Numbered from the stretch's first letter, positions 10,316-37,300 are shown. The stretch is 38,894 nucleotides of DNA from Chrysochromulina tobinii (GCA_001275005.1 JWZX01003402.1:1-38894); one strand, 5' to 3'. Numbers and translations are program-made. The notes: generated by a model from the sequence alone, not told the origin.

Positions 10316-12533
10316 ATGGCCAAGGCCAAGGCCAAGAAGGCCGACGGTGCAGCCAAGGCGGCCAAGCCAGAAGGCGGCAGCAAGAAAAAGGGCGGCGGCA
10401 AGGGCGGAGGTGGCAAAAAGAAGGGCGATGGTGCCAAAAAGAAGGGCGATAGTAGCAAAAAGAAAGCAAAGGCCGAGGGAGCCAAGAAGAATGTCAAGGC
10501 CGCCGCCAGTGCTCCCGCTGACGCCGGTCCGAGTGCGAGCGTTCCAGCTGTTCCCAAGCCAGCTGCCCCCCCGCCAGCTACTCCCAAGGCGGTCCCTTTT
10601 AGTTCCACCGCTGCAGCAGCTGCAGCTGCTAAGCTGCAAACAGCCCCGCCTGCGCTGCCAGATCCGTTTGAGGTGAATGAGCTGAGGGCAAGGATTGCAC
10701 AGCTCGAGGCGCTTTTGAGAAGCGCGCCTGCGCTGCCAGCTGCTGCGACGGTTGGTATTGGAACGCAAGCCAGCGCCGACGCTGCCTTCCTACGCGCGGC
10801 GCTGTCTGAGCCCGCTGCTACACCAACAGGACCCGTCGCTGTGGCCGCACCACCGCTCCCGCCTTCGCCGCCGCCGGCAGTGCCAGAGCTCACACGTGGG
10901 TTGTTGAAGCGGGAAGCCGAGCTCAACGAAGCTGCAAATGCTGACCTTCCGCCACAACCTCCGCCAAAGCCGCCAAGACAGCCCTCGCCGCCCACTGCTG
11001 CCGCTGCTGCTCCTACTACCACCGCCGCCGCCGCCACCACCGCAGCGGCTGCGGTCCCAGCATCGAAAGGAAGTGGAGAAGGCAAGAGTGCACCGAAGAC
11101 TGCCGAGGTTGGCAAGGACGCCAAGAAGAAGGCTGCTGCCGCTGCTACCCCAGAGGTGGCCAAGCCTGCATCGAAGCCAGCGCCGATACCACCTGCACTG
11201 GCGCCTGCGCTTCCGGAGCCGGCGCCAGACTTCTCACGTGGGTTGTTAAAGCGAGAACCCTCACGTGGGTTGTTGAAGCGGGAAGCCGAGCTCAACGAAG
11301 CTGCGAGCACCATGGCAGATATTTGGGCTGCAAATGCTGGAGTATCGCGAAAGCCTCCGCCAAAGCCGCCACGACAGCCCTCGCCGCCCGCTGCGCAGCC
11401 GCCCTCGCCGCCCACTGCTACCACCGCTGCTCCTACTACCACCGCCGCCGCCGCCGCCGCCGCCACCGCTGCCGTGACTGCTGCGGCTGCGGTCCCAGCA
11501 TCGAGAGGAAGTGGAGAAGGCAAGAGTGCACCGAAGACTGCCGAGGTTGGCAAGGACGCCAAGAAGAAGGCTGCTGCCGCTGCTACCCCAGAGGTGGCCA
11601 AGCCTGCATCGAAGCCAGCGCCGATACCACCTGCACTGGCGTATGTATCAAAGTCACCACCGTCGGCTGCGGCTGCGTCAGCGTCCGGAGGCTCACCTCC
11701 AGGCCCCGTGGCGCTGCCGCCGCCGACCCACCTGCACAAGGAAGGGAGCTTGGGCGGCTTGGCCGCGACTGCGCAGCAGCGGGCTCGGGACAGGGAGGCG
11801 GCTGAGCGAGCCGCCGCTGGCGGAGCCTCGCCACCATCCCAGCTCCCTGAGCCATTGCCTGTTGCAGGCAAGGGCTCACCGGGTAAGGGCAAGGGCAAAG
11901 CTGAAGGGGCGTCTGCGGCGGACTCGTCGAGCGCGGGGCTAATCCTCTTTGATCGGACGCACGACATTGGAACCTCCAGGTGATTGCCTCTGATGGCCTC
12001 TGATGGCCTCTGATTGCCTACCTCATCAGCTGACCCTCTTTGATCGGACGCGCAGCGCGGGCGCCAGCCACAGTCCGAAGGCGGATGAGTCCATGCATCT
12101 CTTCGTGCAAGAGCTCGTGCTCGAATGTGCAGAAGTTGCAGCGGACGATGCGATCTATGCCGAGGAGATGAGAGTGGCGGACGAAAGCGCCACGAGGCGC
12201 ACGTCGCGCTACACGGCGCGCGGCTCGGCGCGCGGCTCGGCGCGTGGCACGTACCGCATGCTACGCAATGGCTGGGTCAAGCTCGACGAGTCTGAGCTCG
12301 ACGCGTCAGGCGAGCTGGGCGACTTTGCTTCCCTCGGCGAGGTGGGCTTTGCTGAGGAGTTTCGGCATGCACGTGAGCGCGGCAATAGTAGCACTCCTTC
12401 TGGCTTCACGAGCGGGCAGGAGGCGGAGCTCGTCGCCGAGCTCCGGGGCGTCCGCGCCTCCGCGGTGCTTGAGCGCGCCAAGAGGAAAGCCATCGCAGGC
12501 TCTGTCAAGGAATGGTTCTGGTTTGACCCGTGA
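10316..12533 (+). CDS. Lys/Ala/Pro-rich low-complexity protein with internal duplication; 2 predicted exons
   Basis: Exon 1 10316-11979, exon 2 12056-12533 (2142 nt, in frame). Basic N-terminus MAKAKAKKADG..., coiled-coil-like VNELRARIAQLEALL, C-terminal KRKAIAGSVKEWFWFDP. Confidence 0.55.
10890..11641 (+). repeat. Intragenic duplication of a ~100-125 codon module
   Basis: RGLLKREAELNEAA...PPPKPPRQPSPP...GSGEGKSAPKTAEVGKDAKKKAAAAATPEVAKPASKPAPIPPALA occurs at ~10890-11201 and ~11260-11641 with near-identical DNA. Confidence 0.9.
11980..12055 (+). other. Predicted intron with TGAT(T/G)GCCTC 10-mer array
   Basis: CCAG|GTGATT donor, four 10-mers at 11981-12020, CTGAC at 12030, GCGCAG acceptor; phase-2 splice joins the two ORFs. 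Confidence 0.6.
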
Positions 12534-13015
12534 GGAGAGAGATCTCCAGGATGAGACTCGGAGTCTGCTCTAGCGTTAATGTCGCAGATGCGTGACCGTC
12601 AGACAGCGCCGCTAGCAGACTCCATGCTACTCGACGACTCACACTTACTGGAAGCGACCCGCGCTTGTTCGTTCTCGCATCTAGTGGCGCTTTTGGCCTT
12701 TGGACACCCTGAGCTCCCAGGTTATAGTACAGTAGGAAACACAAACAGTGATCAGTGTACACTTACGTTAGATAAGTCGGGTACGAGGGGGAACCGGACC
12801 TCATCGTTATACTGTATCTGAAATATGAATTCACAACCAAAATTGTAATTCGACACCCAAGACACCGGACCGGCGTACGTACGGTTGCTCGGGGACCCCT
12901 GGACCCTTATCACAGCCAATTCACAGCGTCCATAGCAGGCGACCTTCCCAAGTGGCAGTGAATCACTGCATTGTTTTCACGTAATTCATAATGAATTGCA
13001 GCAGATATCACATCA

Positions 13016-14167
13016 ATGTCGCGACCTTACCGCACGGGACGTCGACTCGCATCTCACGCCGGCAAGTTGCGAGCCTCACTCAAGAAGCTCGATGCAAAAA
13101 CGAGAAAAGCCTTTGAGGACTACCTCCGTGATGTAGAGCAGCGACCCACGGGCGTGATCGGCTCTCAGTCGCCCGAGTGCACTATGTATGATTTCGTGCA
13201 GCAGCGCATCCGTCCATTTGTTGTCCATGGCGAGCTTGGCTGTTGCGAACGGCCATCATCCGCAAGGGCGACTGTGCCTCCACGCGGACGCTGCCTCATG
13301 GGCTCACGACTGCTGATTTCGATAGCGTTGTATGGCAACGACCCACACAGTTGGGAGTACCTGTCCACGGTTCTGCACAGCCTTGCCGTGGCGCGCTTCT
13401 CTGCAGGAATGTCGCGAATGGATGTGGTGCTAGACGTAACACACGTACCGCCAATAGGACGAGGGCTATCTGTGCCGCATGGCCTCAACGTCACCCATCA
13501 ATTGCACAGCCTCGACATTCGTAAGGCCCTCGCTGGGCAGCACCGACGCCGTGCGGTTCGCGCGCTTGCCTCTGACAGCTACGATTACTACGCCTATCTC
13601 AATAACGATCTGAATTTCACTGCCGAGGCATTCGATGCATTGTGTGCTGGCCAGGCTCCTTTAGCGGGCACGAACCTGATGGTTGGTCCGATGCGTTACG
13701 AGACCAAGCGGCACAAGGGAGGGTCTTTGCCATCACGGCGGCTTCTCAACGACCTGGCCTTTCCACCACACCTAGGTGGCGTGGTGACCGTTCGGGGGCA
13801 GCGCTTCCTCGTCCCAACCAATCCGCATCATGGGGCGTGGTTCCTGCCAGCGGGACGGCTGCGTTGCCTGCTGGATCGGCTCGCCATGTCCAACGAGACG
13901 CATCGCGATTGGTCTGCGGTACCGCTGCCTGATGCATCGCTTGAATATTATGATTCACTTTGGCTCATGCCATGGCTCATCAAGGTGGTGCCACTCGACA
14001 CGTATGACGATCTGCTCGTGCACCACCTCTCTAATAAATACGCCCAGATGCCGAGCATCGCAAAAGGCATGCCGGAGGCGAGCGCGCTGCGCGAAGCATC
14101 CCTCAGCTTCACCGGGTTTGAGCCAGTCTCACTCTCGCGATCTACACCGCGTGGGTCACATGGATGA
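13016..14167 (+). CDS. Hypothetical protein, putative GT-A-like glycosyltransferase
   Basis: 383-aa ATG ORF with YDYYAYLNNDLNFT (DxD-like position), RYE, NPHHGAWFL and LLVHHLSNKY. Confidence 0.5.
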   Translation: MSRPYRTGRRLASHAGKLRASLKKLDAKTRKAFEDYLRDVEQRPTGVIGSQSPECTMYDFVQQRIRPFVVHGELGCCERPSSARATVPPRGRCLMGSRLLISIALYGNDPHSWEYLSTVLHSLAVARFSAGMSRMDVVLDVTHVPPIGRGLSVPHGLNVTHQLHSLDIRKALAGQHRRRAVRALASDSYDYYAYLNNDLNFTAEAFDALCAGQAPLAGTNLMVGPMRYETKRHKGGSLPSRRLLNDLAFPPHLGGVVTVRGQRFLVPTNPHHGAWFLPAGRLRCLLDRLAMSNETHRDWSAVPLPDASLEYYDSLWLMPWLIKVVPLDTYDDLLVHHLSNKYAQMPSIAKGMPEASALREASLSFTGFEPVSLSRSTPRGSHG

Positions 14168-14596
14168 TCGCGTGCAGGCGAGAACAGGCGCCGTGGCCCA
14201 CGTGTGGGCGCACAAGTGGGCGCGCCGGCACTCACCGCTCTAAGATTAGACGGCCGTATCGGACCAGCTTGCATGCGCTTTTTCATCGGATTCGGAAGCG
14301 TCGCGGGTCGCTGAACCTGAGTGTATCTCCACATTCCGAGGGTTGCAATCTCGGCGATCATTTACTTTATCCGGAGAGCACAGGCAAATTCTCTCTCAAT
14401 GTGAAACGGTTCTTTCATACGTACGTAGCTAGTACGATAGATCGAACATGCGAAATCTTTGACGGTCGACACACGGGTGCGGGCCCCATCGACGTTGCCC
14501 GGTCGCGGCCTCGGGCTCTCTCCCCCTCACCCGAGCCGAGCCCCGAGCCCCGAGCATTCAACGGGCACGGCCAATCATCGCGATGATAGCCCGTTA

Positions 14597-15376: not shown

Positions 15377-15590
15377 CGACGCGCCCCGTCGCGCAACTTT
15401 TCATGCAAAGATTCAAGACAGTAGTAAAAAGATCTGACCGGTAAAAACTTGGCGCCCGCTCCATGCTCGACGCGCGGTGCTTCATGATCTCGACGCTGCG
15501 CTCCCAGGTCGGCTTTGCCGCGGCCGTAGCGCACGCCCGCCTCCGTCTCTCGCGTCTCGAGCTCATCGGGGGCTCTGGCCGCACAGCCGG

Positions 15591-15726
15591 CACAGTGTTC
15601 AAAGCCTATGAGGTAATTACCTGAGTAGTGAGAAGGTCCCCCTAGGTCAAAAATGCGTTCCACAGTGTTCAAAGCCTATGAGGTAATTACCTGAGTACAA
15701 GTGGGAAGGTCCCCCTAGGTCAAAAA
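15591..15726. repeat. Tandem ~70-bp duplication with internal palindrome AGGTAATTACCT
   Basis: Units start at 15591 and 15661; first 37 bp are identical and both continue GAAGGTCCCCCTAGGTCAAAAA. Confidence 0.9.
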
Positions 15727-15846
15727 AGTGCGCCGGCCGGCCGCTACGCGTTTAACTACGCGTCTGCCGCGCGCGCCTTCATTTCGCCGACCGCCTTCGA
15801 GCAGGCGCGGGGAGGCGCTCTGGGAGCAGGTGGCGGCAGGGTCGGG

Positions 15847-16086
15847 TTCGCTGGGGGCGGCCTCTTCTGAGTCGGCCGCGGGGTGCGGTCGGCTCCGGGG
15901 CTGTGGCTGTTGAGTCGGCCGCGGTTTCGGTGAATTCGGTGCTCGTCGCGTGTCGTGCGGGTTGTGTCAGTGTGTGGTGGGTTTGGATGGATGGTTGTGA
16001 GGTTCGTCTGTGTGATCCGTGTGCCCGTGTGCGCCCGTGTGTCCCGTGTGTGTCCCGTGTGTGCCCCGGCTCCCCCACGTGTCTTT
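15847..16086 (+). mobile_element. Dispersed repeat family A, copy 1 (~240 bp, non-coding)
   Basis: Reverse-complement matches at 23457-23645 and 23679-23906 (e.g. GGTTGTGAGGTTCGTCTG and GGCTGTTGAGTCGGCCGCGG). Confidence 0.75.
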
Positions 16087-16177
16087 GAACCGGTAAAAAG
16101 ATGATCTCGGAGAGTTCCGGTGAAGCGCCCGAAGCGCGAGATGCAACCTAGGATCGGTTTGGCACCCAGTAACGAGT

Positions 16178-17604: not shown

Positions 17605-18212
17605 TGCTCTTGCAACTCGAGCACCAGCACCAGGTGTGGCGTGTGGGGAGTTGAGAAAAGGTCAGCTTAGAACGACACAAACGCAGCGGTCGCGTCGCAA
17701 GGTGGATAGTTAGGCTTCTAGGGGAGTTTGAGAAAAGGTCAGTTGAAGCCTCGGAAGAGATCGTATCCCATCTCCTCCCATCTTCTAACCAGAGTCGGCC
17801 AGCGTGGGACCTGGGTTGGCACCCGGAGGTCGTCGCGAGGTCGTGCCTCGTGCGTGCGTACGTGCGAGCGCGCGTGCGAGCGTGCGTGCGTGCGCGTGAG
17901 CGACGGTGAGTCGGTTATTGTCAGGTTCGTCCCCCCGGTGATTTTGAACTTGTCGGGTATCTTCCCAAAGTTCTTGAATGATCGATTCAATCTCGAACGG
18001 CGACGCGCCTTTGTCGTGTGTGGGTGTGACGAGGCTTCAACTGACCTTTTCTCAAACTCCCCTAACTTTCCACCGTGCAAGCAAGCAAGCAAGTTCTTTA
18101 ATCGAAACACTTGCTTGCTTGCTTGCTTCGACCGTGCGACGCGACCGCTGCGTGTCGTTCTAAGCTGACCTTTTCTCAACTCCCCACACCTGGTGCTCGA
18201 GTTGCGAGGGCA
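17605..18212. mobile_element. Nested foldback/MITE-like non-autonomous element
   Basis: Outer inverted arms ~17605-17703 and ~18131-18212; inner perfect 35-bp inverted repeat 17719-17753 / 18030-18064 ending in TA. Confidence 0.8.
17752..17977 (+). mobile_element. Dispersed repeat family B, copy 1
   Basis: Collinear with 20089-20294 (CGGAAGAGATCGTATCCC...TGTCAGGTTCGTCCCC...AAGTTCTTGA). Confidence 0.8.
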
Positions 18213-18245
18213 GAACTCTGCGTGGTCCAGCCCAACGCCGCTGTG

Positions 18246-19868
18246 ATGAGCGGCAAGCAGCCGGCGGCTAAGCGGCGCAAGCCTTCGTCTTCGGGCGACC
18301 TGCTCGATAGCATCCTCGGCGGCATAGACAGAACCATGTCCACAACTCCGGGAGCCTTCCGCGCCGAGGAGGAGCCCGAGGTGGCGTCACACTACCAGAT
18401 AGTGCGCGCGCCGCCGGCCAGCGACCTGAATCGCAAGAGCATGTGCCGCAACTGGGAGTGCGGAGGGACCGAATTCGAGAACGACTACCGCTCTGGTGAC
18501 CGCGTGTGCCGCTCGTGCGGCGCGGTGCAGAATGCGCGCAACTGCGAGTCGCAGGAGGAGGAGCACCGCACGTTCGCCGACGACGACAAGAAGGATTCGA
18601 AGCAGCGCACGTCGCGCAGCGCCTCCACCGGTGTGGGCATGGCCAAGCTCGAGCAGGCCAATCAGCTCGCGCACGGGCAGGCGGACGGCGACGAGCTCAC
18701 GCATAAGCAACGGAAGAAGATCGCGGATTACAAGGACAAGGTGACGGTGCTCTCGGACGCGCTCGAGCTGACTGATACCATCAAGTTCGACGGGCACATG
18801 TTATGCGAGGACCTCGTACGCAAGCAGCATGAGCATGACGTGCAGTGCGGCAAGGGTGGCACGTGCCGGCTGACGCTGCGCCTGCGCCCGGCGGCAGTGA
18901 TCGCGGCAGCCTTGCTCAAGGAGGCCATGCGCAAGAACGGCATCGATCGGCTCTTCGAGGAGCTCAAGAAGGTGCTCAAGGGCGACGATGTTGACGCCGC
19001 AGACACGGGCAAGGTGGGCAAGACCCACGCCATCGTGCGTGACCTGCTCAAGGGCGCGCCCTATCCATGCGCAGATGAGGACTCAGGCCGGGCGGCCGCC
19101 GCGGCCGCACAAGCAGAATCCCTGCGGCTCGGCGCGAGTGGCAGCAGCGAGGGGAGTGCGGCCGGTGCGGCCGGTAGGGGAGCCGACGGCAGCATCACTG
19201 CGGCGCCTCATCCGGCAATAGCGTTAGTGCCTCGGCTGACGACACGGTTGCATCTCCCCTACTATCTGGAGCGTCGCGCCGTTGAGTGTATCGAAGACTG
19301 GTCCCTCTTCGGGCTGCCCGCGCTAATGCCGCAGACGATCTCGGCCCTTGCACTGCTGCGCGCCTTTGAGGAGCTCGTGCAGCCCAAGCTGCGAAACGGT
19401 AAGCAGAATCGACCGCTGCCGCAGCTGCCGAAGCTCTCCGTAGCCGACATCGCCCAGGAAGCAGGTCTGACGGAGAAGACGCTCACGCAGCACATGAGGC
19501 ACGAGGACCTGCCTTGGCCAACACTGCTCCTGCAGGACCTCGCGCACCGGCTCGCGCCGCCGCCGCCTTTCGCCTTCCGCACCGAGGCGCAGAAGATCCT
19601 CGACCGTATCTTGCAAGTGCCTGGCAACCCAGCCGCTGAAGCCACAAGGGAGTGGAGCCGGAAGTTGACACCACGTCTCGTGGCCGCATGCGCGCTGCTC
19701 CTCGGCGCTCGCAAAGCTGCCGCCGACGAGGCCGCCGCCGCCACTGTGACCGCCATCACCCCCACGGAGCCGCCCGACACGGCGGCTGTCGCCGCCGCAG
19801 CAGGCGTCAGTCCGCAGGCCCTCGATGCCGCGCTGGCAGCCTACCCGCCAGCACAAGTGACTATGTGA
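18246..19868 (+). CDS. Transcription factor IIB (TFIIB/Brf)-like protein
   Basis: Zn ribbon CRNWECG...GDRVCRSCG, B-reader-like EEEHRTFADD...QRTS, cyclin-fold repeats (PAAVIAAALL; PQTISALAL...VADIAQEAGLTEKT); NLS-like AAKRRK. Confidence 0.85.
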   Translation: MSGKQPAAKRRKPSSSGDLLDSILGGIDRTMSTTPGAFRAEEEPEVASHYQIVRAPPASDLNRKSMCRNWECGGTEFENDYRSGDRVCRSCGAVQNARNCESQEEEHRTFADDDKKDSKQRTSRSASTGVGMAKLEQANQLAHGQADGDELTHKQRKKIADYKDKVTVLSDALELTDTIKFDGHMLCEDLVRKQHEHDVQCGKGGTCRLTLRLRPAAVIAAALLKEAMRKNGIDRLFEELKKVLKGDDVDAADTGKVGKTHAIVRDLLKGAPYPCADEDSGRAAAAAAQAESLRLGASGSSEGSAAGAAGRGADGSITAAPHPAIALVPRLTTRLHLPYYLERRAVECIEDWSLFGLPALMPQTISALALLRAFEELVQPKLRNGKQNRPLPQLPKLSVADIAQEAGLTEKTLTQHMRHEDLPWPTLLLQDLAHRLAPPPPFAFRTEAQKILDRILQVPGNPAAEATREWSRKLTPRLVAACALLLGARKAAADEAAAATVTAITPTEPPDTAAVAAAAGVSPQALDAALAAYPPAQVTM

Positions 19869-20088
19869 CACGCGGCGGCTACAGCGGCCGGATCAACGGT
19901 AGGAGAGGACAAGAACAGGTTGCAGAGGAGGGTATCGCAGCGCTTTGAGAGCTGGTGAGCAGATTCGCCTGCGCGCGAGGCGCGGAGAGGAGCGCGTTCT
20001 GGCGGCGACGTGAGGGCAAGAAGAGCGGCATGGCTATGCGCGATCCAGCACAATCGTGAGTTCGGAGCGAGGGGCAGCGAGCGCGGAG

Positions 20089-23354: not shown

Positions 23355-23456
23355 CGCCGCAGGGGATAATGTGCGCCCGGCGGCGACGCGACCCTAAGGC
23401 CTTGCTTGATTCAACCAAAAACTAAACATAGGTCCCGGTACCCGGTATACCGGTAA

Positions 23457-23645
23457 AAAGACGCCGGGGGAGCCGGGACACTCACGGGACACACACGGGA
23501 CACGCGGGCGCACTCAAAGGCACACGGACCACGCAGACGAACCTCACAACCATCCAAACCCACCAACAACACACATCCCGCACGTCAGCGCGAGCACGAC
23601 CGAAGCCGCGGCCGACTCAACAGCCACAGGCCCGGAGCCGACCGC
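23457..23645 (-). mobile_element. Dispersed repeat family A, copy 2 (truncated)
   Basis: Reverse complement of ~15884-16086. Confidence 0.75.
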
Positions 23646-23678
23646 TCAATACCCGGTATACCGGTACCGGATCCGGTG

Positions 23679-23906
23679 AAAAGACACCGGGGGGAGACGG
23701 GACACACATGGGACACACGTGCGCACAAGGGCACACGGATCACACAGACGAACCTCACAACCATCGAACCATCCCTGCAACCCACCAACGCACCTACACG
23801 GCACAAGCACGACCGCACGACGACCGAAACCGCGGCCGACTCAACAGCCGCAGCCCGGAGCCGACCGCACCCCGCGGCCGACTCAGAAAAGGCCGCCCCC
23901 AGCGAA
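23679..23906 (-). mobile_element. Dispersed repeat family A, copy 3
   Basis: Reverse complement of 15847-16086; in tandem with copy 2. Confidence 0.8.
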
Positions 23907-27721: not shown

Positions 27722-27858
27722 CGGCGACGCGTGCGGCAGCAGCGGGCCCCTAGCATCTCGTGCATGTATTAACAAAAAAATTCCGGCGCAGTCACGACCT
27801 TTTCAACTGTGAAATAACGGCGGACCACGTTTCTCGGGCGCCCGCCCCTAGACGCCAC

Positions 27859-29145
27859 ATGGCATCGCTCCAAGCACGCATAGCCGAACTGGCGCGGCAC
27901 CCAGCGACGGCCATTTCACTTCGAGACCTATACAAGGCCGGAAACAAACCGAGCCGGAGCATGCGCCTGCAGAATGCAATCTTTTTGCAGCGCGAGCTGC
28001 CGATACGGATGGCTCAGCGCATTGTGGAACTCCAGACGCTGCCGTTTGGCCTGAACCATTCGCCCCACATCCTGAAAGTCATCGGCTGGTACTCATCCTT
28101 CGTTGACACGATCACTTCGATGCCGCGCGTGTCTTCCGTCGACGACGAGGACCGCTTCACCAGTACGATCGATGCGCAGTTGCAGACGCCCAGCCTCGTC
28201 ACGGCGATGCTATCGGCGGCGGTGAGCCAGTCAGCCGCGTCGATCAACGACCCATCAACCGACAGCCGCCGGCAGCCGGCAACGCGCACGCAGCGGGTGG
28301 ACTTCATGCAGAAGGCGCTCGACCGCTTCTTCACCGCGCGGATCGGCCTGCGATTCCTGATGGAGCACCACGTGAGGATCAGCCGAGTCCAAGAGGAGAA
28401 CTGGTCGGGCATCATCCAGGCCAACTTCAACCCGGCCGACGTCGTGCGGCACGCCGCGGAAGATGCGCGCCACTTATGCGAGGACGAGTACGGGATCGCG
28501 CCCGAGGTCGAGGTGCGTATGGCGGACGTCGAGGATGAGCCGAGTGCGACACGCAACAATCGGCTCACGTACGTCCCAAGCCACATGCACTACATTTGCA
28601 CCGAGCTCCTCAAGAATGCCATGCGTGCCACGACGACGCGCCATCGGCGCGCGCCAGGGCATAATCTCCCGCCCATCGTGGTCACGATCGCCTTTGGCAA
28701 GGATACCCTCGGCGTGCGCATCTCGGACGAGGGCGGCGGCATTGCGTTGGCCGAGACCAACCGCGTGTGGCGGTACGCATACACCACCGCTCCCGTGCCG
28801 CTCATCGAGCTCGACGGCTCCGCAGACGCGCCACCTCAGACCCTCCGCCGCTCCGCGCTCGCTGGGTACGGCATGGGATTGCCGCTCAGCCGCTTGTACA
28901 GCCAATACCTCGGCGGGCGTCTCGACTTGCGATCGCTCGAAGGACACGGCACCGACTGCTTTCTGCATCTGCCGCGGCTGGGCGCGGCGTGCGAGACGCT
29001 GCCGGCGGTGGTGCGTGCGTCGCCCGCGGAGCGCGACTCGACGCCTGGCCCAGGTGGCCTCTCTTCCTATTCGATGAAGGCCGAGCTGAGCGAGTACGAG
29101 TACGCGGTGCTCAGCGAGAAGCTGGCCGAGATTCGGCACGATTGA
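27859..29145 (+). CDS. PDK: Mitochondrial pyruvate dehydrogenase kinase / BCKD kinase family
   Basis: FLQRELPIRMAQR, LDRFFTARIGLRFL, ELLKNAMRAT (N box), ISDEGGGI (G1), LAGYGMGLPLSRLY (G2), EGHGTD. Confidence 0.92.
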   Translation: MASLQARIAELARHPATAISLRDLYKAGNKPSRSMRLQNAIFLQRELPIRMAQRIVELQTLPFGLNHSPHILKVIGWYSSFVDTITSMPRVSSVDDEDRFTSTIDAQLQTPSLVTAMLSAAVSQSAASINDPSTDSRRQPATRTQRVDFMQKALDRFFTARIGLRFLMEHHVRISRVQEENWSGIIQANFNPADVVRHAAEDARHLCEDEYGIAPEVEVRMADVEDEPSATRNNRLTYVPSHMHYICTELLKNAMRATTTRHRRAPGHNLPPIVVTIAFGKDTLGVRISDEGGGIALAETNRVWRYAYTTAPVPLIELDGSADAPPQTLRRSALAGYGMGLPLSRLYSQYLGGRLDLRSLEGHGTDCFLHLPRLGAACETLPAVVRASPAERDSTPGPGGLSSYSMKAELSEYEYAVLSEKLAEIRHD

Positions 29146-29345
29146 AGAACTGACTGTAGCAATGCAGGTGCTTGGGTCAGCACGATTGCATGCGTGAGTT
29201 CTGATTTGCGACGGCTTTGCGAACTTTTTCTCTTCACACTCCTCCTGCCGTGTGGAGCAAGCCTCTCTGTGCCGCCCGTGTGGCGGTGACGCGACGGTCG
29301 ACAGGGGCGAGGCAGTCGCGAGCGAGCTCGGCTCTCGTCCGCAGC

Positions 29346-30701
29346 ATGTCGGACTTAATCGCATGGGCGCTTGACGTCACGCCCACACCAACGACTCAGC
29401 TGCTTCATGATGGACGTAGGGTCTCTTCTGCACAGCACGCACAGCCGCAGCCGCAGCCGCAACCGTCGCCGCAGCCGCAGCCGCAACCGTCGCCGCAGCC
29501 ACAGCCGTCGCCGCAGCCGCAGCCGCAGCCGCAACCGCAGCTGCAGCATCAGAGCCCACAGCAACCATCTGAGATCGGCGATGAGCGACAATCTTCTCCG
29601 CCGTTACCGCTCGTGAGCTGTGCGCTCTTTTGGGACTACGAGAACGTGAGCATCCCAAATCACGTGGTAGCTGCCGACGTATCCAACTCCCTGCGCCAGC
29701 TGGCGCTGCAATTCGGGCAGCTCACCCAGCGGCGCCTGTACCACGACCCTGCGAAACATCAAGGACTAACTGCGGAGAAGCGCACCGCGCTGGATCAGGC
29801 CGGGTTCACCCTCGTCGACTGCCCCTCACGCGGGTCGAAGGAGACTGTGGACAAGAAGATCATTGTGGACGTGATGCACTTTGCGATGAGCCGAGTGCAC
29901 TTGGGCGGGCGGACGTGCGTGGTGCTCGTGAGTAGCGATGGCGACTACGCGTACATGCTCTCGCTCCTGCGTGACCTGCGCGTGCACGTGGTGGTGGTGT
30001 ACCACGCGGGATGCGTCGCGCCTTCACTGATCGACGCGTGCGATACGGCTGTCGACTGGGAAGGGCAGATTCTCGTCTCGTGCCGTCATGCTGGCGACGA
30101 GGACGACAAGCAGGAGGCGGAGGCGCGCGAGGACCATCTGGCGCACCAGATTGAAGGGCGGCTGGCCGCCCTCGCACCCAAGCTGCAGCGCGCGCTCTCT
30201 TTGGGCAAGATGCGGAAGGCCGCCCTCCTCGGCCGGAAGATGGAGGTGCTCAGGACGAAGCTGCGAGTGCGCCCGAGGCAAATATCAAGGGGAGCAAGGT
30301 CTAGGGGAGCAGCAGCGGCGAGGGGGGCGGGCGTCTTGATCGACGCCGGCGACCTCCATCTGATTGAGCCTAGCTCTGCATTCGCAAGGTCGTGCGCACT
30401 GGAAGGTCGATTCGATGTGGAAGCGCTCCGCTTCGTCGATGGCGATGACTGTGACCATGACCACGCGTCGGGCGGCGGCGATGGCGGCGGCCATGGCGAC
30501 GACGTGGCAGAGGGCGAATTGTACATGGCTCTCGAGCCGTCCTGTGCGAGACGGATACGCGGGGTCGCCATTGCAAAACCTTTGAGGCTGGCCCGAGGCA
30601 GAGCTGCGAGGCTGACCAAAGCTGCGAGGAAAGCCAAGGGCGGTCGGATGAATCACATGAAAGCCAAGCTCAAACGGAAAGAAGGCAAGAAAGGACGCTA
30701 A
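29346..30701 (+). CDS. NYN-domain (PIN-like, MARF1/limkain-type) putative ribonuclease
   Basis: ALFWDYENV, KETVDKKIIVD, VVLVSSDGDY, LIDACD; N-terminal PQ repeat and basic C-terminal tail. Confidence 0.85.
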   Translation: MSDLIAWALDVTPTPTTQLLHDGRRVSSAQHAQPQPQPQPSPQPQPQPSPQPQPSPQPQPQPQPQLQHQSPQQPSEIGDERQSSPPLPLVSCALFWDYENVSIPNHVVAADVSNSLRQLALQFGQLTQRRLYHDPAKHQGLTAEKRTALDQAGFTLVDCPSRGSKETVDKKIIVDVMHFAMSRVHLGGRTCVVLVSSDGDYAYMLSLLRDLRVHVVVVYHAGCVAPSLIDACDTAVDWEGQILVSCRHAGDEDDKQEAEAREDHLAHQIEGRLAALAPKLQRALSLGKMRKAALLGRKMEVLRTKLRVRPRQISRGARSRGAAAARGAGVLIDAGDLHLIEPSSAFARSCALEGRFDVEALRFVDGDDCDHDHASGGGDGGGHGDDVAEGELYMALEPSCARRIRGVAIAKPLRLARGRAARLTKAARKAKGGRMNHMKAKLKRKEGKKGR

Positions 30702-31060: not shown

Positions 31061-33823
31061 TCAGCGACTGCAATCAACAAAAAACCAAAAACCAGTTGCC
31101 AGTGAGGATGTCTGCCCTCCCCCCACCAGGCTGTTGATAGTCCTTGATGTCAATTTTCGGAAGCAGCTCATGCAAAGTTCGTCTTCACGAACCAGCAGCG
31201 TACCTTCCAAGGCCTTGCCATTGTAATCAGTACACTTTTGCCATCGACTCCCCTGTAGCTGCACGCGCCACATGCCGCTCGGAGCGTCGTACGTCTGAAC
31301 GACGGCACGGACAGGCCCAGGCGCAACTTTGGCGACGTACACAACGGTGCCCTCGTGTATCGCAGCGCACTCAGACCCAGCCTTGCCGTGCACTGCGTTA
31401 CGAATCGAGGCCTCCCCTTCCTCCTCGATATCTAACCAGCTGAGGTTGCACTCGATTAATGAGCGATTGACCAATAGCAGATTGGCCACGTGCTTGGCGC
31501 CTGCTGTCCCACCAATGTTGTCGTCGGCTTCATCATAATCTCCGCTCAAGTCAAGCTCCTTGAGAGTGGTGTTGCCTTTCAGTGCATCACAGATGAGTTT
31601 GGTGCCTTCCTCTCCCAACCCATTCCTGGCGAGCGAAAGTTTGGTGAGCGAGCGGTTGATGCCAAGCATGTCAGCTACATGCTTGGCACCTGCAGCATAG
31701 CCGATGTTGTTGTAGGCAGGGAAACTGCCACTCAGATCGAGCTCCTTGAGCGTCTTGCTGTCTTGCAGAGCCTCGCAGAGAGACTTCGTGCCATCCTCGC
31801 CCAGCATGTTACTGGCGAGCGACAGCTTCGTTAGCGAGCCGTTGATGCGCAACGCGTCGGCGATCGCAGCTATGCCCTTGACGATGTAGGTGCCGCTCGG
31901 ATGCAATCCGGTCTGCGCATTATCGTTCATTCCACAGAGCTGGTTGGCGTCGAGATCGAGGCTCATTAGCGAGCTATTTGCAGCGAGCGCTGGCGCAAGG
32001 GCGTTAGCACCTTCTGGACCGAGGTGATTGTACCGCAGGCAGAGCGTTGCTAGTGAGGCCATTGCAGGTAGGAGTCCTGCCACAACCATGATGCCCTCGT
32101 CGCCAATCCCCTTTCCATTTATGTTGAGCTCTGTGAAGGAGTCGGCGCGCATCTCCTTGATCGGGATGTCGTTGAACATCTCGATCTTGAGGTTACCGAG
32201 GACAGCCGCTGAGAGCTGTGCAGCGCCGTCGCCCGCGATGATGTTCCCGCGGACGTCGACACGTAAAAGCGAGCGGTTGACCTTGAGAGCCTCGCCAAGT
32301 GCCGAAGCACCTTCTGAGCCAATCCGATTGCAGGTGAGGTCGAGCGACGTGAGCGAGCTGTTGACGCGGATTGCTTCGACAATGGAGCGAGCACCCTCTG
32401 GACCAAAGAAGTTGCGCGAGAGGTCGACGCAGGTTAATGAGCGATTCACGCAGAGAGCATTCGCAATTGCTGTGATACCCTCTGCGCTGTAGGTGCCGAG
32501 CAGGCTGTTCACGTATCGACCCCCCCACCATCCGTTGCCGAGGCCGTTGGCGAGGCCACCAAACGGGCTCTTCGCGAGACCGCAAAGAAAGTTTTCAGAG
32601 AGATCGAGGCTCGTGAGTGAGGCTGTGGAAGCAACGAGATAGCTGAGGAGCATGGCCCCCTCCAATCCGAGTCCTTTGCGTGACAAGCCGAGCTTCGTGA
32701 CGCTCTCCTCGAGGACTCTCAAGCCCGCACAGGCGACGGCTGCGGTCGTCAGCTTCAACGGTGGCTCACCCTCGCCTGATATGCAGCTGTAAACAAGAGC
32801 ACGATTGAATGCTAGATGAGCTCGATGAGGAAGATGCTCACGATGGTAAGCTGGGTGGCAGCCATACTCGGGATAACCCTCTGCAGCTCGGAGCCTTAAA
32901 GGAGCCTCCGTGATGCGCTGATGGTCTCTGACGGCCGCAAACATTTGGTCCGCCACTTCCGCGGCTCGGATTTTCGCCACGTCCACTTCGAAGCCGTAGC
33001 CATGGATGCGTGCCAGTCCGGGCAGCATCCGCCCCGCTATATAGACTTCCCACGGCCGGCCGGCCTCGATCAGCTTCTCAACGTCGAGGTCGGTGATCTC
33101 ATCCAGTTGTGTGGGTACCGGCTGCCCGTCACGGCGGCACAGGCGCGAGCACAGGACACGTCGCGCCAGCGCACGCCAACGTCGATTCATGCCCTTAAGC
33201 TCGACCAATGTGGCCACGTCCACAAGGCCCAGAGCAGCCTCCTGGGCATCTGTCGTGGCTAGCACCCCCGAGAACGAGGGCTGTTTGAGCAGTGCGGGCG
33301 GTTCTATGGAGCTGGCCGGCTGCCGCGGCTCCTCGAAACTTTCTGGGACAAAGGCTGACTCGGCAAGTGTCGCCGCATGTTCCTCCGCGCTGCCAAAGTC
33401 GCTACCCTCGCCAAGCAGCGCACGGATTTCTAGAGCGCGCTTGCCGTTGAGCCGGGAGGCAATGGCTCGCTGGATTTGCTTGAGCGCCATGGGGGCGTCG
33501 AGGCAGAGGGCGTCCTCGATGAGATTGAAAAGCTGTACTAGTGAATGCTCGTAGAGCTGGTCCATGCTCGGCCACGTGTATTCTGGGTCATTCAGTTTGC
33601 ACACCAATAGAAGCGCCGAAGCCCTGATCGCAGGCATTGCATATATGCCATTCTCGGAGGTGGCGAAGTCCATGAGATCCTTAATGGTGCCGACGAGCCG
33701 GGCTGCATTGCACGACAGCGTGACCTCCTCCCCATCTCGCGCTCGCACACGGATCCGCTCGTTGGCCGTGCCCATCGGGCCCATGGAGGCGGACAGAGTG
33801 CCAAGTGCGTTGCGTGAGGCCAT
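31061..33823 (-). CDS. Skp1-like + F-box-like + RNI-type leucine-rich-repeat protein
   Basis: Skp1 pattern (IRVRARDGEEV...GTIKDLMD; LFNLIEDALCLD...IASRLNGKRALEIRALLG), F-box-like LVDVATLVELKGMNRRWRALA, many SLTxLDLSxNxLGxEGA repeats. Confidence 0.8.
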   Translation of the reverse strand: MASRNALGTLSASMGPMGTANERIRVRARDGEEVTLSCNAARLVGTIKDLMDFATSENGIYAMPAIRASALLLVCKLNDPEYTWPSMDQLYEHSLVQLFNLIEDALCLDAPMALKQIQRAIASRLNGKRALEIRALLGEGSDFGSAEEHAATLAESAFVPESFEEPRQPASSIEPPALLKQPSFSGVLATTDAQEAALGLVDVATLVELKGMNRRWRALARRVLCSRLCRRDGQPVPTQLDEITDLDVEKLIEAGRPWEVYIAGRMLPGLARIHGYGFEVDVAKIRAAEVADQMFAAVRDHQRITEAPLRLRAAEGYPEYGCHPAYHREHLPHRAHLAFNRALVYSCISGEGEPPLKLTTAAVACAGLRVLEESVTKLGLSRKGLGLEGAMLLSYLVASTASLTSLDLSENFLCGLAKSPFGGLANGLGNGWWGGRYVNSLLGTYSAEGITAIANALCVNRSLTCVDLSRNFFGPEGARSIVEAIRVNSSLTSLDLTCNRIGSEGASALGEALKVNRSLLRVDVRGNIIAGDGAAQLSAAVLGNLKIEMFNDIPIKEMRADSFTELNINGKGIGDEGIMVVAGLLPAMASLATLCLRYNHLGPEGANALAPALAANSSLMSLDLDANQLCGMNDNAQTGLHPSGTYIVKGIAAIADALRINGSLTKLSLASNMLGEDGTKSLCEALQDSKTLKELDLSGSFPAYNNIGYAAGAKHVADMLGINRSLTKLSLARNGLGEEGTKLICDALKGNTTLKELDLSGDYDEADDNIGGTAGAKHVANLLLVNRSLIECNLSWLDIEEEGEASIRNAVHGKAGSECAAIHEGTVVYVAKVAPGPVRAVVQTYDAPSGMWRVQLQGSRWQKCTDYNGKALEGTLLVREDELCMSCFRKLTSRTINSLVGGGQTSSLATGFWFFVDCSR

Positions 33824-34353
33824 CGCGTCAGAGCGTCGTCGTCGTCCAGCTTCACCTCTCTCAGAATCGCTCGCTCGCAAGGTGTTGAAAGCAAGCGCTC
33901 GCGGGGCAAGCGCTCAGCATGGCGCGTGTTCGGCAGCCATTGGAACTAGCCTCCACCCGCTACAGTTTCGCTACGCCGCATCAAAACAGCGTTTTTGAAC
34001 AGGCATAATTTGTCGTCACCGGAAGGGTTGAACGCACCTGCGGCCGCGGCGGGCCGCTGTCCCTAGAGAATTCGGGAAACATGACTCTGCCTCGGCACAG
34101 TCGGTGCGTGTGCGCTGGACGGCCCTCCACACACACACAGCCTTGGCTCGAACTCGACCGATTCTGTAGAGCGCTTGCGTCTCCTCTCGCTCGGGCTGAC
34201 CGTGCCGGCGATGGGCGCTGTCACCGTACCGAGCCTCTCTAGTTCACGTGTTACGTGCATGCGTCCACATCCACACGACGGCCGGAGCCACGGCCTCGCC
34301 CACGGGACCGACCAACCAACGGCCGCCTGCCCCGCGACGCGACGGCGCGCGGC

Positions 34354-37300
34354 TCAAGGCCGGAGAGCCTCGCGCGCCGGGTCGAGCACCTCCGCCTTGA
34401 TGCGAGGGTAGTCGGGATACTGCCCGAGGACCTTGTGGCACACATCGATGGCTTCGACGTACTTCTTGGCCTTGAGATAGTTGAACGAGAGCTTGTACCC
34501 GACCGCGGCGGACGCCTCGTTCTCAAAGCCCCACGCCTTTTCGTAATGCGAGGCAGCGTCCTTGTACGCGGCCTCCTTCTCCTTGACGACACCGAGGAAC
34601 TCCCAAGCCTTGGCGCACGACTTATTGGAGGCGAGGCAGCGCCAGCAGAGCTCCTCGGCGAGGTCGTACTTGCCGCCCACGATGTACACGTCCGCGAGCA
34701 TCAGCCAGCCGCGCTCGAAGTCGTCAATGAGCTCGGCCTGGAAGGCAATCTTGGCGACGCGCTTCAGGTGATTACGCGCCTTGGGCGCCTGCTTGAGCAT
34801 CAGATAGGCCTGCGAGAGGCAGACGAGCGCGGGCAGGTAGTCCTTCTCGACGCCGAGCAGCTCGAGGAGCATCGCGACAGCGCGGTCGATCTGGTTGCGC
34901 TCCTTGGTGGCCAGGAGCATGTAGCACTCGAGCACCTGTCATCAGGGGTCATCAGGGGTCATCAGAGGTCATCAGGGGTCATCAGAGGTCATTAGGAGCA
35001 TGTAGCACTCGAGCACCTCGCGCCGTGCCGAGCTCGGCATCTCGCGCAGCAGCCGCTCGGCGGCCTTGACGGCCTCGTTCGGCTCGGCGGGCGCGTCCAC
35101 GTTCAAGTTGTCCCAATTCGTCTCATTCTCCGGGTTCAGGAAGATTTCGATCATCTGTCGCAGCGCAGGCTCCCCATACTCGCCGTCGCGCCTTGCCATA
35201 TTTAGGTGGCGCAGCGCGGCGCGCGGCTGGTTCTGGTAGCGCGCGAGCAGCCCCTGGCAGTAACGGAAGCCCGGCTCGAGCGCGGCGCGTGGCGACGAGC
35301 GCTCTGCATTCTTGAGCACCTGGATAGCCTCCGCCATGCGACCCGCGCGCCGCAGCAGCGAGAGCATCTTGGCGATCGCGCCGAACAGGGCAGGCTGCTT
35401 CAGCAGCAGCTGCTCGAAGTGGTAGATGGCCGCATCCCACTCGGACTTTTGGATCATGATGTCCGCAATCAAGATGCGCGCCGCGTCCAGGTCGGCCGGG
35501 GGCGCCGCGTTCAGCGTCATGAGCGACGAGCACTGCTGCTGCGCCGCGTCGACCTCGCCGCGCGCGAGGTGCAGCCGCGCGAGGGCGAGCATCACCTTCT
35601 CGTCGTCCTCGTTGTGCTTCAGTGCTGTCTTATAGGCGTCGAGGGCCGCGTCGGTGTCGTGCAGCTGCTCATGGAGAGCGCCGAGCTCCATCGCCACGCT
35701 GGCCGCGACAGCCTGCCACGTGGCGAGCGTCATCAGCGGTCATCAGCGGTCATCAGCGGTCATCAGTGGCAATCAGTGGCAATCAGAGGCACTCAGCGCA
35801 CCTGCTGAGTCGCGAGCTGATCGGCGCCGCCCGTCTCGGCGCGCAGCTGCGCGAGCGCGTTCTGCTGGTTGCTCTGCGCTTGGTGGAGCGCCTCGAGCGC
35901 CTCGGGCAGCGCGTTGAGCGCCTTGTGTACCTTGGCCTGCAGCTGCAGAGCCTTGGTGACGAGCAGTGCGTCCTCGATGACCATCCTCGCACGCCCCCCG
36001 CCGTCCGGCACCGCGCCCGCGCTGTAGCCACAGGCGGCGATCAGCTGCTTGAGCTCGGTCATCGCCGCGTCGTACCGCTTCAGGTTGAGGTAGAGCGCCG
36101 CCAGCTCGTACCGAAGCGGCGTCTTGCTCGGATCCGCTGCTGCCGCGTCTGAATAGTACTCGATGGCCTTGGCGTACGCATGTGTGCTCACGAGCACGTG
36201 GCCGATGCGCGACGCGAGCACCGGGTCGTTGGGCGACTTGCGCAGTGCCGTCTCGAAGGCGGCGATCGCCTTCTCGGGCTCCAGCACCGCCATGTACGCC
36301 TCGCCGAGCATCATGTACGAAGCGACCGTCGGGTTCGCCGCAGCCACCTCCTCGTGGCACGCCGCGTACGCGCGCTTGTCGTTGCGGTGCTCGAGGTAGA
36401 GGTCGGCGAGCGCCTTGCGCGCGGCGTGGTAGTGGGCTGATTCGCTCGGGATGGCGCGCAGCAGCTGGAGCGCCGACTCGATATCTCCTTTGACCACCTG
36501 CACCTTGGCGTTTGCGATCTGAAGGCGCCCCTCCACCGGCGTGCCATCAAACTCGACCACGGCCGCTGCCATTGCACTCTGCGCCTCCGACACCTTTTGC
36601 TGCGCGAGCAGCGCATCGACCAGCTGCATATGGAGCGAGCACTTGTCGCTCAGATTGAGCTTGAGCTCTTCGGGCAACGTCGTCGGCGGCGGCGGCATGG
36701 CCGCGCCGCGCTGCCGTCCACCTGCGCTCTTTTGGTTCTGCGCGCCGGCGCGCGCGCCCGCGCCGCCCTGTGCGGCGATGGCGCGGCTGAGCATGGTCTC
36801 AGCCTCGGCGAACTCGCCTTGCAGATGTAAGATCTGAGCCTTGATCAGTTGGAAGAGGGGCTGCTCGCGCACCGCAAAGTTGTGCGATAGCGCCGAGTCG
36901 AGCACTGCGCCCGCCTGGCGCGTCTTGTCGAGCTTGAGCAGAATCTGCGCATGGAGCAGCGCCGCGTCCGCAAACGTCGGATCTGCCTTCGCAATGGACG
37001 AGCAGCAGCGCAGCGCGGCCTCGTAGTCAGCGCGCAGGTAGTGGGCGCGCGCGAGCTGCATCTGCGAGTCGAGCAACCCGGGCGAGTGCTTGGCCACCTC
37101 GTGCAGCACGCGCGTCGCCTTGCCAAGCAACTGCGCAGCACGGGAGCCCTCGTCGAGGGCCGAGCCGTCCGCCTCGCCACAGTGCTTGAGGTACTCGCGC
37201 GCGATCTCGAGCAAAAAGTCAGGGTTGAGGCTCGCGTAGAAGGCCGAGCCGAGTGGAAGCTTGCGAGCCTTGGCCAGCTGCTGCGTGCTCGCGCGGTCGA

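Follow-up and report, generated by a model that had tools for sequence, protein, structure and literature searches.

Background

Introners, in which many similar copies of one insert make introns in unrelated genes, are known in Micromonas pusilla, Aureococcus, Symbiodinium and Polarella glacialis, and as family 5 of a Chrysochromulina sp. MAG (bioRxiv 10.1101/2020.10.14.339549; PMC9860276). In the available text of these reports, the element carries one splice site and the target-site duplication supplies the other, introns arise from one orientation only, and some introners obtain both splice sites from an AGGH duplication (bioRxiv 10.1101/2020.10.14.339549; PMC9860276). Duplications in the known classes are short, with a fixed 4, 5 or 8 nt, and most of these classes have terminal inverted repeats (TIRs). 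The supplementary tables of an introner census give no family for Chrysochromulina tobinii and only three small ones for E. huxleyi, and its available text assigns approximately 5% of classified introners to non-LTR elements (PMC12130899, supplementary files 7 and 8 for the family counts). Direct repeats flanking new introns of the Daphnia type have been attributed to break repair (PMC3488318; PMC11782384).

The arrays described below can also be set beside three further systems. LINE and SINE insertions leave long and variable target duplications, have a precise 3′ end and a variable 5′ end with extra bases, and display microhomology between the element 3′ end and the start of the duplication as well as at the 5′ junction. 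Intron gain has also been modelled as the duplication of an exon segment containing AGGT. Introns of Emiliania huxleyi reportedly contain tandem repeats of 10–11 nt, which resemble the arrays here in being short units of about one helical turn in a GC-rich alga; our literature search found no text on the units, flanking duplications or mobility of these repeats.

In this study, a 38,894-nt stretch of DNA (the window) from the freshwater alga C. tobinii was analysed together with related metagenome loci. Our main and new finding is that, in at least 148 related loci, 156 of 295 arrays of the 10-mer CTGATnnCCn stand between direct repeats of 10–50 nt that are specific to the locus. These arrays are probably the bodies of short inserted elements, likely an introner-like mobile family through which spliceable introns arise.

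Materials and methods

The related loci (at least 148) were chosen by the array pattern itself and are not a random genome sample; they stem from many samples and perhaps several species. Together with the window they contained at least 338 non-redundant arrays. Summed DNA contig depth, which is not copy number, was approximately 30,000 and 11,700 in two array-holding bins versus 80–110 in most others. Composition was tested in 237 strict arrays from the window and the related loci, among the matches listed. Flanking duplicates were scored with the array units masked, and shuffled pairs of upstream and downstream flanks were used as the control.

Results and discussion

Three CTGATnnCCn arrays were located in the window, and their orientation is identical on the coding strand, with TGAT on the strand of the flanking ORF (Table 1). 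At period 10, TRF returned 3.9 copies of TGATGGCCTC with 93% matches at 11981–12019, 5.9 copies at 34938–34996 and two overlapping rows of 3.8 and 3.5 copies at 35729–35798. The window holds 17 copies of TGATNNCCNC, 12 of them inside the three arrays, versus 4.82 ± 2.05 in 100 dinucleotide shuffles, none of which reached 17. Three array-filled introns on two strands had been proposed in a preliminary description of this DNA, and their coordinates, GT..AG borders and shared sense direction were all borne out by direct reading.

Table 1 Features of the window that bear on the array-containing introns
Feature	Position	Strand	Remarks
Predicted intron 1	11980..12055	+	76 nt, GT..AG; host gene low-complexity, without Pfam match
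Intron 1 array	11981..12019	+	4 units: TGATTGCCTC, TGATGGCCTC ×2, TGATTGCCT; TRF
Element tail TGCCTACCTCATCAG	12015..12029	+	Pyrimidine tract + CAG; not the acceptor in the predicted splice
22-nt target duplication, upstream copy	11939..11960	+	CTAATCCTCTTTGATCGGACGC; exonic
22-nt target duplication, downstream copy	12030..12051	+	Immediately 3′ of element CAG; intronic in the predicted splice
TTC21/IFT139 gene (intraflagellar transport)	34354..38822	-	Host of introns 2 and 3 and candidate intron 4; Pfam
Intron 2	34936..35016	-	81 nt, GT..AG; homologue-supported junction
Perfect 25-nt duplication, upstream copy	34994..35018	-	AG|GTGCTCGAGTGCTACATGCTCCT, its GT the donor; score 25, period 81
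25-nt duplication, downstream copy	34913..34937	-	Acceptor AG + start of next exon
Intron 2 array	34938..34993	-	~5.9 units TGATGACC(T/C)C; ends ...TGATGACAG; without canonical tail
Intron 3	35713..35801	-	89 nt, GT..AG; spliced in RNA (RNA contigs + homologues)
Intron 3 array	35729..35798	-	TGAGTGCCTC, TGATTGCCAC ×2, TGATGACCGC ×3, TGATGACGC
Candidate intron 4	37820..37909	-	90 nt, in frame, GT..AG; without 10-mer array

The minus-strand gene was identified by the Pfam domains ARM_TT21_N, _2nd, ARM_TT21, _4th, _5th and _C (E 1e-20 to 1e-80), and introns 2 and 3 give gapless junctions against seven TTC21/IFT139 homologues. Intron 3 is also confirmed by RNA, as contigs from two runs (X14 record 21 and X15 record 28) skip it and join 34994–35711 to 35801 onwards, with a 1-nt ambiguity on G; no clear flanking duplication was detected around it. 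The RNA contigs at intron 2 are ambiguous because the duplicated 25 nt is common to both forms, and its borders are the sole GT..AG pair in register with its duplication. Intron 1 is a prediction resting on frame preservation: its excision keeps the frame and leaves a single terminal stop, and the codon score prefers the plus strand; no RNA contig crosses it, the gene being barely covered by RNA.

The direct repeats around the arrays were far in excess of the control. A duplicate score of at least 12 was reached by 156 of 295 arrays versus 9 of 870 shuffled pairs, and a score of at least 16 by 123 of 295 versus 0 of 870; the remaining 139 arrays had no duplicate at a score of 12 or more. Duplicate lengths have a broad mode at 20–29 nt, and mismatches amount to 3.07% over 4105 nt; the perfect identity of 84 of the 156 duplicates suggests recency. 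In 30 of the 52 arrays that end in CATCAG, the duplicate follows without an intervening base (0 of 247 when shuffled), and 20 of these 30 tail-anchored duplicates start with GT and 6 with GC. Directly before the upstream copy, G stands in 26 of the 30, AG in 15 and CAG in 11. Among 56 duplicates that abut the array, 37 have C at position -2 and 26 have T at position -1, which matches the unit end CCT. The block between these copies therefore looks like an inserted element; to that extent the self-propagating repeat of the preliminary description gains real support, from target-site duplications that its reader had not seen.

Could the arrays instead be ordinary minisatellites, grown by replication slippage inside old introns, with flanking repeats that are unrelated local duplications? 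Whole-unit change was indeed observed between loci L008 and L065, whose flanks are mostly identical in alignment (95–98% in BLAST) and whose arrays contain indels of exactly 60 and 10 nt relative to each other; units are also more alike within one array than between arrays, and the body is a 10-nt tandem array of the low-complexity type that was filtered out of an introner census on this same ground, according to its available text (PMC9860276). However, slippage does not account for locus-specific exon duplicates anchored to the base past a shared terminal motif, and it leaves unexplained both the GT or GC onset of 26 of the 30 tail-anchored duplicates and the sharing of one unit and tail across at least 18 unrelated gene families. 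Whole-unit slippage accounts for the length of the arrays, not for their origin, and the minisatellite reading is already disfavoured and, in our judgement, extremely improbable. Entire modules of duplicate plus element were also found to re-duplicate in tandem. Of the few usable cross-assembly pairs listed, none revealed an empty site or a presence/absence polymorphism: L029/L107 and L094/L116 have identical spacing, L008/L065 differ in unit number, and the window and L076 share the same intron.

The block does more than fill space: a conserved 3′ splice module, TGCCTCCCTCATCAG, forms its end, and its donor is taken from the duplicated target. In canonical form, it reads target copy (usually starting GT), (CTGATGACCT)n, CTGATTGCCT, CCCTCATCAG, target copy, where the last unit is CTGAT(T/G)GCCT followed by CCCTCATCAG. 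The CATCAG tail is present in only 54 of 237 arrays, and CTGAT-TGCCTCCCT-CATCAG occurs at a constant offset in 33, whereas the 5′ ends are heterogeneous and carry 0–29 nt of unrelated 'head' sequence. Three splice layouts were recognised. In the first, the duplicate begins with GT or GC directly past the final CAG of the element, so that excision of the first copy plus the element restores the original exon. The second has ..CAG|G at the end of the duplicate; this G and the leading TGA(T/G) of the element make up the donor, and the second copy provides its CAG as acceptor. In the third, AG|GT lies inside the duplicate. The donor falls at the start of the duplicate in 32 cases, in the middle in 45 and at the end in 25 (n = 102). 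A GT..AG pair lies exactly in register with the duplication in 86 of 156 duplicate-bearing arrays versus 25 of 156 for the mirror control CT..AC (six other dinucleotide pairs, 6–23 of 156), and the other 70 have none. Intron 1 departs from the simple rule, as its duplicate begins with CT and the tail CAG paired with the GT at 11980 would give an in-frame TGA; its predicted splice uses a donor GT in the first unit and an acceptor AG past the second copy, and the two copies have 2 mismatches and identical codon phase. The A of the last CTGAT in CTGATTGCCTCCCTCATCAG lies 16 nt upstream of the final G of the acceptor, a positional fit by which the CTGAT ladder is predicted to serve as branch point.

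Over 7 nt, the first unit is the inverted complement of the tail (CTGATGA ... TCATCAG), which raises the reading of a miniature DNA transposon with inverted ends, moved by a transposase, whose array would be a multiplied terminal binding site. TIR DNA transposons make up approximately 82% of classified introner families in the available census text (PMC12130899). Against this, the duplicates span 10–50 nt, not the fixed 4, 5 or 8 nt given in the available text on introners (bioRxiv 10.1101/2020.10.14.339549), the tail and with it the inverted match are missing from 183 of 237 copies, and no hairpin excess was detected in the three window introns (z = -0.21, +1.60 and +0.45). An assignment to TIR/MITE-like introners, with fixed-length duplication and terminal inverted repeats, was rejected on the variable duplications and the mere 7 nt of inverted match, and we consider such a transposon very unlikely.

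The 237 strict arrays contain 31 AG versus 414 expected from base composition and 37 GT versus 687 expected, in keeping with the near-absence of both noted earlier from the units, and 201 of them contain neither. All three sense frames are closed in 229 arrays, which extends to the sample the earlier remark that TGA falls in every frame, and all three antisense frames are open in 227. The scarcity of AG and GT would leave few cryptic splice sites, and TGA in every frame would make retained copies read as premature stops, from which NMD may be expected.

Strand specificity, likewise claimed in the preliminary description, was evident by two approaches. Within 300 nt of 19 Pfam-confirmed ORFs in the loci listed, 24 of 24 arrays are in sense orientation. 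With arrays masked, the codon score of the flanks called 144 arrays sense-only, 10 antisense-only and 8 mixed and left 75 uncalled (n = 237). The absence of arrays between genes, as noted in the preliminary description, holds true within the window. For isolated precise introns, the codon score was higher in sense than in antisense in 35 of 38, and the sense frame was open in 33 of 38 once excised versus 2 of 38 unspliced. Under the mechanism favoured below, selection would account for the strand specificity, since arrays are spliceable in the sense orientation alone. The 19 ORFs represent at least 18 different best-hit Pfam families (TTC21 twice), and thus the proposal of a single family building introns in unrelated genes also stands, with one window intron confirmed by RNA and two by homology.

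The array family is classed with the introners, with which it shares a multi-copy insert that makes introns in unrelated genes, a splice site in the element with the other co-opted from the target-site duplication, and introns from one orientation only; it differs from the known classes, as available, in its long variable duplications and in microhomology at both junctions. The middle layout resembles duplication of an AGGT exon segment, where the first copy gives the donor GT and the second the acceptor AG, and splicing between them restores the message. Unlike in such gains and those of the Daphnia type, the copies here are separated by a common foreign block that brings an acceptor module of its own, at hundreds of sites. 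With LINE/SINE insertions, the arrays share long variable duplications, precise 3′ and variable 5′ ends and junction microhomology, whereas the element is only 40–150 nt long and has no poly(A) tail, recognised internal promoter, or RT/endonuclease partner in the ORFs scanned.

In the mechanism that we favour, array-bearing RNA or DNA would be copied into a staggered break and microhomology would join both ends, the element CAG matching target (C)AG and the unit end ..C(C)T the last bases of the target. The element supplies CTGAT every 10 nt as predicted branch points, besides a pyrimidine tract and its acceptor CAG, and borrows its donor from the duplicated target; after insertion, arrays gain or lose whole units (seen once) and modules of duplicate plus element re-duplicate. 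Long variable duplications and microhomology at both junctions are a poor fit to a fixed-cut DNA transposase, and we infer that insertion is RNA- or repair-templated. It appears to resemble target-primed reverse transcription most, given a variable duplication, a ragged 5′ end, junction microhomology and a defined 3′ end that applies to the tail-bearing subset only (54/237). Selection for a favourable donor context, instead of priming, could also explain the (C)AG that precedes the duplicate. No reverse transcriptase, endonuclease or transposase family was found among 128 array-adjacent ORFs (E ≤ 1e-8) and 17 window ORFs, and none of the longer conserved elements examined was found to end in the tail motif.

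These same scans accord with a repair origin, in which staggered breaks in transcribed genes are filled in, yielding the duplicate, and bridged by microhomology copying from existing arrays, so that the family would spread without its own enzyme or master copy. Microhomology at both junctions, the variable duplicate length and the heterogeneous 5′ ends also agree with it, and direct repeats at recent Daphnia intron gains have been interpreted likewise in the available text (PMC3488318). However, the precise conserved 3′ end, with its fixed offset in 33 arrays and next-base onset of the duplicate, looks like an element terminus and not like random patches, and this model names no source of 10–50-nt 5′ overhangs; we regard this origin as rather unlikely. 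We likewise think it rather unlikely that the array-bearing introns are retroposons in their own right, spreading via their own RNA without a known introner-type transposase. In that case, an intron transcript ending exactly at the ...CAUCAG 3′ splice site would be reverse-transcribed in a different gene, where a nicked (C)AG|G offers a 3-base match for priming, and each new copy would bring a branch-point ladder and an acceptor, with the donor from its own long duplication.

Candidate intron 4 encodes an insertion of 26–39 columns that is missing from 7 of 7 homologues. X13 and X14 RNA contigs read through it unspliced, and X15 contigs end at 37820 and 37904. Its first ~34 nt align as a diverged copy of the following exon, and 37835–37859 is repeated in the DNA sample, where it is elsewhere joined to arrays.

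Related loci and sequence analysis

A metagenome collection was scanned for three consecutive copies of the tandem CTGATnnCCn 10-mer unit, and at least 159 stretches among the matches listed were placed in 148 loci (648 kb among the matches listed), which came from lake samples and from cultures like the source; a dozen cultures contain the DNA of the window. An array was defined as at least three CTGAT motifs at 10-nt spacing, giving at least 338 non-redundant arrays among the matches listed; 'listed' below refers to these matches. Period 10 dominated the tandem repeats of the listed loci (508 of 2042 TRF rows), with TGAT-type units in 413 of the 508. For the detection of duplicates, i.e. direct repeats of host-gene sequence on both sides of an array, the array units were masked, and 80 nt upstream were compared with 120 nt downstream by an ungapped repeat score. 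A codon model trained on Pfam-matched ORFs assigned the correct strand to 111 of 119 held-out 200-nt chunks. The antisense control for splice register was too permissive when GC donors were included (43/156), and single dinucleotide pairs were used instead; reverse-strand CATCAG counts were confounded by the 10-mer unit itself.

Array introns in the window

The preliminary description had placed arrays in three introns (introns 1, 2 and 3); the period-10 calls of TRF matched the arrays, and direct reading of the sequence gave GT..AG borders at the positions described. The motif TGATNNCCNC occurred 17 times in the window versus 4.8 ± 2.1 times in shuffles (0 of 100 shuffles reached 17), and 12 of the 17 matches fell within the three arrays.

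Features of the window by position
Feature	Position	Strand	Remark
GT61-like ORF	622-1974		uninterrupted
PPR ORF	3911-6091		uninterrupted
Intron 1	11980-12055	+	array at 11981-12019
Direct repeats	15591-15727		perfect 37-nt repeat, 70-nt period, then 27-nt repeat, 73-nt period
High-copy repeat	15950-16100 and 23430-23870		opposite orientations
Large inverted repeat	17640-18190		arms near 17650-17700 and 18140-18190
Expressed ORF	18102-19868
PDK/BCKDK-like kinase ORF	27754-29145		uninterrupted
NYN-domain ORF	29205-30701		uninterrupted
CAGCCG hexamer array	29442-29547		17.7 copies
LRR ORF	31061-33913		uninterrupted
FkbM-type methyltransferase ORFs			uninterrupted
Intron 2	34936-35016	-	array at 34938-34996
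Intron 3	35713-35801	-	array at 35729-35798
Candidate fourth intron of TTC21	37909..37820	-	90 nt, in-frame GT..AG

Introns 2 and 3 lie in a minus-strand gene with six TT21 Pfam domains in order, TTC21/IFT139, whose protein shared 40% identity with that of the haptophyte Diacronema lutheri (best named match), 32% with that of Volvox, and 62% and 56% with those of closer relatives. Both introns gave gapless junctions against seven homologues. Intron 3 was spliced out in RNA contigs from two runs, and RNA contigs at intron 2 ended within its shared 25-nt duplicate, being compatible with spliced and unspliced forms. Intron 1 is predicted: its removal keeps the reading frame, and the codon score modestly favours the plus strand; its gene was nearly without cover in four RNA runs.

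The first 23 nt of intron 2 are identical to the 23 nt downstream of the intron, and the direct repeat reaches 25 nt with the preceding AG. In intron 1, TGCCTACCTCATCAG comes after the array, and immediately behind it lies a 22-nt duplicate, with 2 mismatches, of exon sequence found 91 nt upstream in identical codon phase. The candidate fourth intron of TTC21 lies inside a long ORF and has no 10-mer array. This segment encodes an insertion missing from 7/7 homologues. The exon that follows is present in diverged form in its first ~34 nt, and its core (37835-37859) recurs within the DNA sample and adjoins arrays at other loci. This candidate, for which splicing is predicted, follows the duplication logic of the array introns with a different body. 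Arrays occupy two of the three or four introns of TTC21, and the duplication footprint is seen in two (intron 2 and the candidate).

Most ORFs of the window have no interruption; the prevalence of single uninterrupted ORFs points to an intron-poor genome, in which array- and duplication-type introns may represent a large share of all introns. In the parts available, the C. tobin genome paper gives about one intron per gene on average. Named matches to the PDK-like kinase had ~41% identity and came from other algal groups; taken with the IFT139 matches, this makes a haptophyte source weakly supported.

Target duplication and splice geometry

Repeats scoring at least 12 flanked 156 of the 295 listed arrays with enough flank, compared with 9 of 870 shuffled pairings, and repeats scoring at least 16 flanked 123 of 295, compared with 0 of 870; the remaining 139 of the 295 listed arrays had no duplicate at a score of at least 12. 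The 156 listed duplicates were 10-50 nt long with a broad mode at 20-29 nt; 84 were perfect, and mismatches amounted to 3.07% overall. The perfect copies suggest that the array family has been active recently, in which case intron gain would be directly studyable in culture.

Among the 52 listed arrays with CATCAG after them, the duplicate began at the immediately following base in 30 (0 of 247 shuffled), and the first bases of these 30 tail-anchored duplicates were GT in 20 and GC in 6. Their common architecture is [target copy](CTGATGACCT)n CTGAT(T/G)GCCT CCCTCATCAG[target copy], where the CATCAG-type tail, written ...CCTCCCTCATCAG, is the 3' end of the element; the tail was kept by only 54 of 237 listed arrays. 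GT..AG stood in exact register with the duplication, such that splicing restores the original exon, in 86 of the 156 listed cases, against 25/156 for the mirror-image pair and 6-23/156 for other dinucleotide pairs. The donor was located at the start (32), at the end (25) or inside (45) of the duplicate in 102 listed cases, and therefore the element can supply the acceptor (tail), part of the donor (G + TGAT/TGAG), or neither. The array element inserts with target duplication, co-opts a donor and carries an acceptor. These duplications give substance to the earlier proposal of a self-propagating repeat, for which we infer the mode of spread.

Strand specificity and composition of the arrays

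Pfam matches at E ≤ 1e-8 were obtained for 19 of 128 listed array-adjacent ORFs, and the arrays within 300 nt of these 19 had CTGAT on the coding strand in 24 of 24 listed cases. With array-masked flanks, the codon model called 144 of 237 listed arrays sense only, 10 antisense only and 8 mixed, with 75 uncalled. Calls on raw flanks (242 sense versus 94 antisense among the matches listed) were much noisier, since nearby arrays look like open antisense frames; masked flanks and isolated introns were used instead. In 38 listed isolated precise introns, the codon score was higher for sense than for antisense in 35, and a sense frame ran uninterrupted through the joint in 33 after excision versus 2 before; since antisense frames were open in 30 of the 38 at this GC content, the open-frame test alone is non-discriminating.

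In 9,916 listed array bases, AG occurred 31 times versus 414 expected and GT 37 times versus 687 expected, and 201 of 237 listed arrays contained neither. All three sense frames were closed by 229 of the 237 listed arrays, and all antisense frames were left open by 227. Strand specificity, the near absence of AG and GT from the units and the stop in every sense frame, as noticed in the preliminary description, were thereby upheld in the related loci. The position weights of the unit were CTGAT [G.71 / T.26] [A.50 / G.48] C C [T.55 / A.25 / G.13 / C.07]. In the final CTGAT, the A is 16 nt from the acceptor G downstream, a distance that makes a predicted branch point at this motif plausible. Pairing of the first unit with the tail in a hairpin was rejected, as the three array introns were no more strongly folded than shuffled sequences (z = -0.21, +1.60 and +0.45); excess RNA structure was also absent from the candidate fourth intron (z = -0.33).

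Array length changes in situ in steps of one or more complete units: two related loci (L008 and L065) with near-identical flanks differed by indels whose lengths were exactly 60 and 10 nt. Modules of duplicate, array and tail were often tandemly repeated, with 2-6 copies at loci such as L012:6790-6970, L032, L058 and L126. In principle, introns could be gained or precisely deleted if duplicates recombined. Sister arrays with variant units (CTGAGTGCCT, CTAATTGCCT) at L046:1060-1135, L068:19120-19190 and L146 share the tail CCTCATCAG followed by GT; their TGAGT unit variant with a preceding G forms a GTGAGT donor.

Mode of insertion

The listed elements have a precise 3' end and a ragged 5' one, where 0-29 nt of an unrelated 'head' are present; when a source was sought for five of these heads, including the 19-nt head of intron 1, each matched only its own locus or orthologues. 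The duplicate abutting the array mimics the end of a unit: of 56 listed cases, 37 have C at -2 and 26 have T at -1. At the other junction, the bases before the upstream copy match the last bases of the element (final G in 26, AG in 15 and CAG in 11 of 30 listed cases), although (C)AG at this position may instead reflect selection for donor context. By analogy, the junction pattern most resembles target-primed reverse transcription (TPRT) or templated repair at a staggered break, by which the element would be inserted. Several results weigh against these modes, among them the small share of arrays that keep the tail and the 139 that lack a duplicate. No partner gene (reverse transcriptase, endonuclease or transposase) was found in the 128 listed array-adjacent ORFs or the 17 window ORFs, no longer element with the same tail at its end was found among the matches listed, and the few orthologous pairs among these matches included no empty sites or presence/absence variants. 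An 85-nt difference between two loci (L002 and L053) was rejected as presence/absence variation because it was a contig end.

Comparison with known introners

The origin of new spliceosomal introns is a long-standing question, and introners, mobile elements that create introns, are its best-documented answer. Almost every introner family described is a cut-and-paste DNA transposon whose duplications are short and of fixed length. The array family works like an introner and, in its duplications and splice geometry, has the general defining features of one, but lacks the fixed duplication of transposase-driven families. The observation behind the earlier view of an intron-building repeat stands, and its interpretation, now with a concrete footprint, is supported in part. 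Described introner classes, as far as the available text of the source goes, make duplications of a set length, 4, 5 or 8 nt (bioRxiv 10.1101/2020.10.14.339549), whereas duplications in the array family span a five-fold range of length. The family also differs from described introners in its body, a ladder of branch-point-like 10-mers with a ready-made acceptor, in long variable duplications that supply the donor, and in microhomology at both junctions; together these features argue for a different insertion chemistry, RNA- or repair-templated. Amoebophrya introners, in the portion of their description available, are likewise dissimilar, with direct repeats of 3-5 nt and inverted repeats of 8-20 nt.

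In the accessible portions of large censuses, Chrysochromulina tobinii has 0 introner families and E. huxleyi three small ones (PMC12130899), and low-complexity intron families were deliberately removed (PMC9860276), so that tandem-array introners would be missed wherever present. In the literature searched, tandem-array introners that have long duplications were not described, and the available sections of the Phaeocystis genome paper and the E. huxleyi transcriptome paper do not mention intron repeats.

Other repeats in the window

The high-copy repeat is apparently intergenic and contains ACCGGTA-type palindromes and degenerate 10-11-nt GTGTCCC/GGGACAC runs, with a summed DNA depth of ~10,000 versus ~80-110 elsewhere. 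The large inverted repeat, with TTGAGAAAAGGTCAG in each arm, lies just upstream of the expressed ORF, and RNA contigs with a variant arrangement were found. The direct repeats contain GGTAATTACC palindromes in an apparently non-coding context, and the hexamer array lies early in the NYN-domain ORF.
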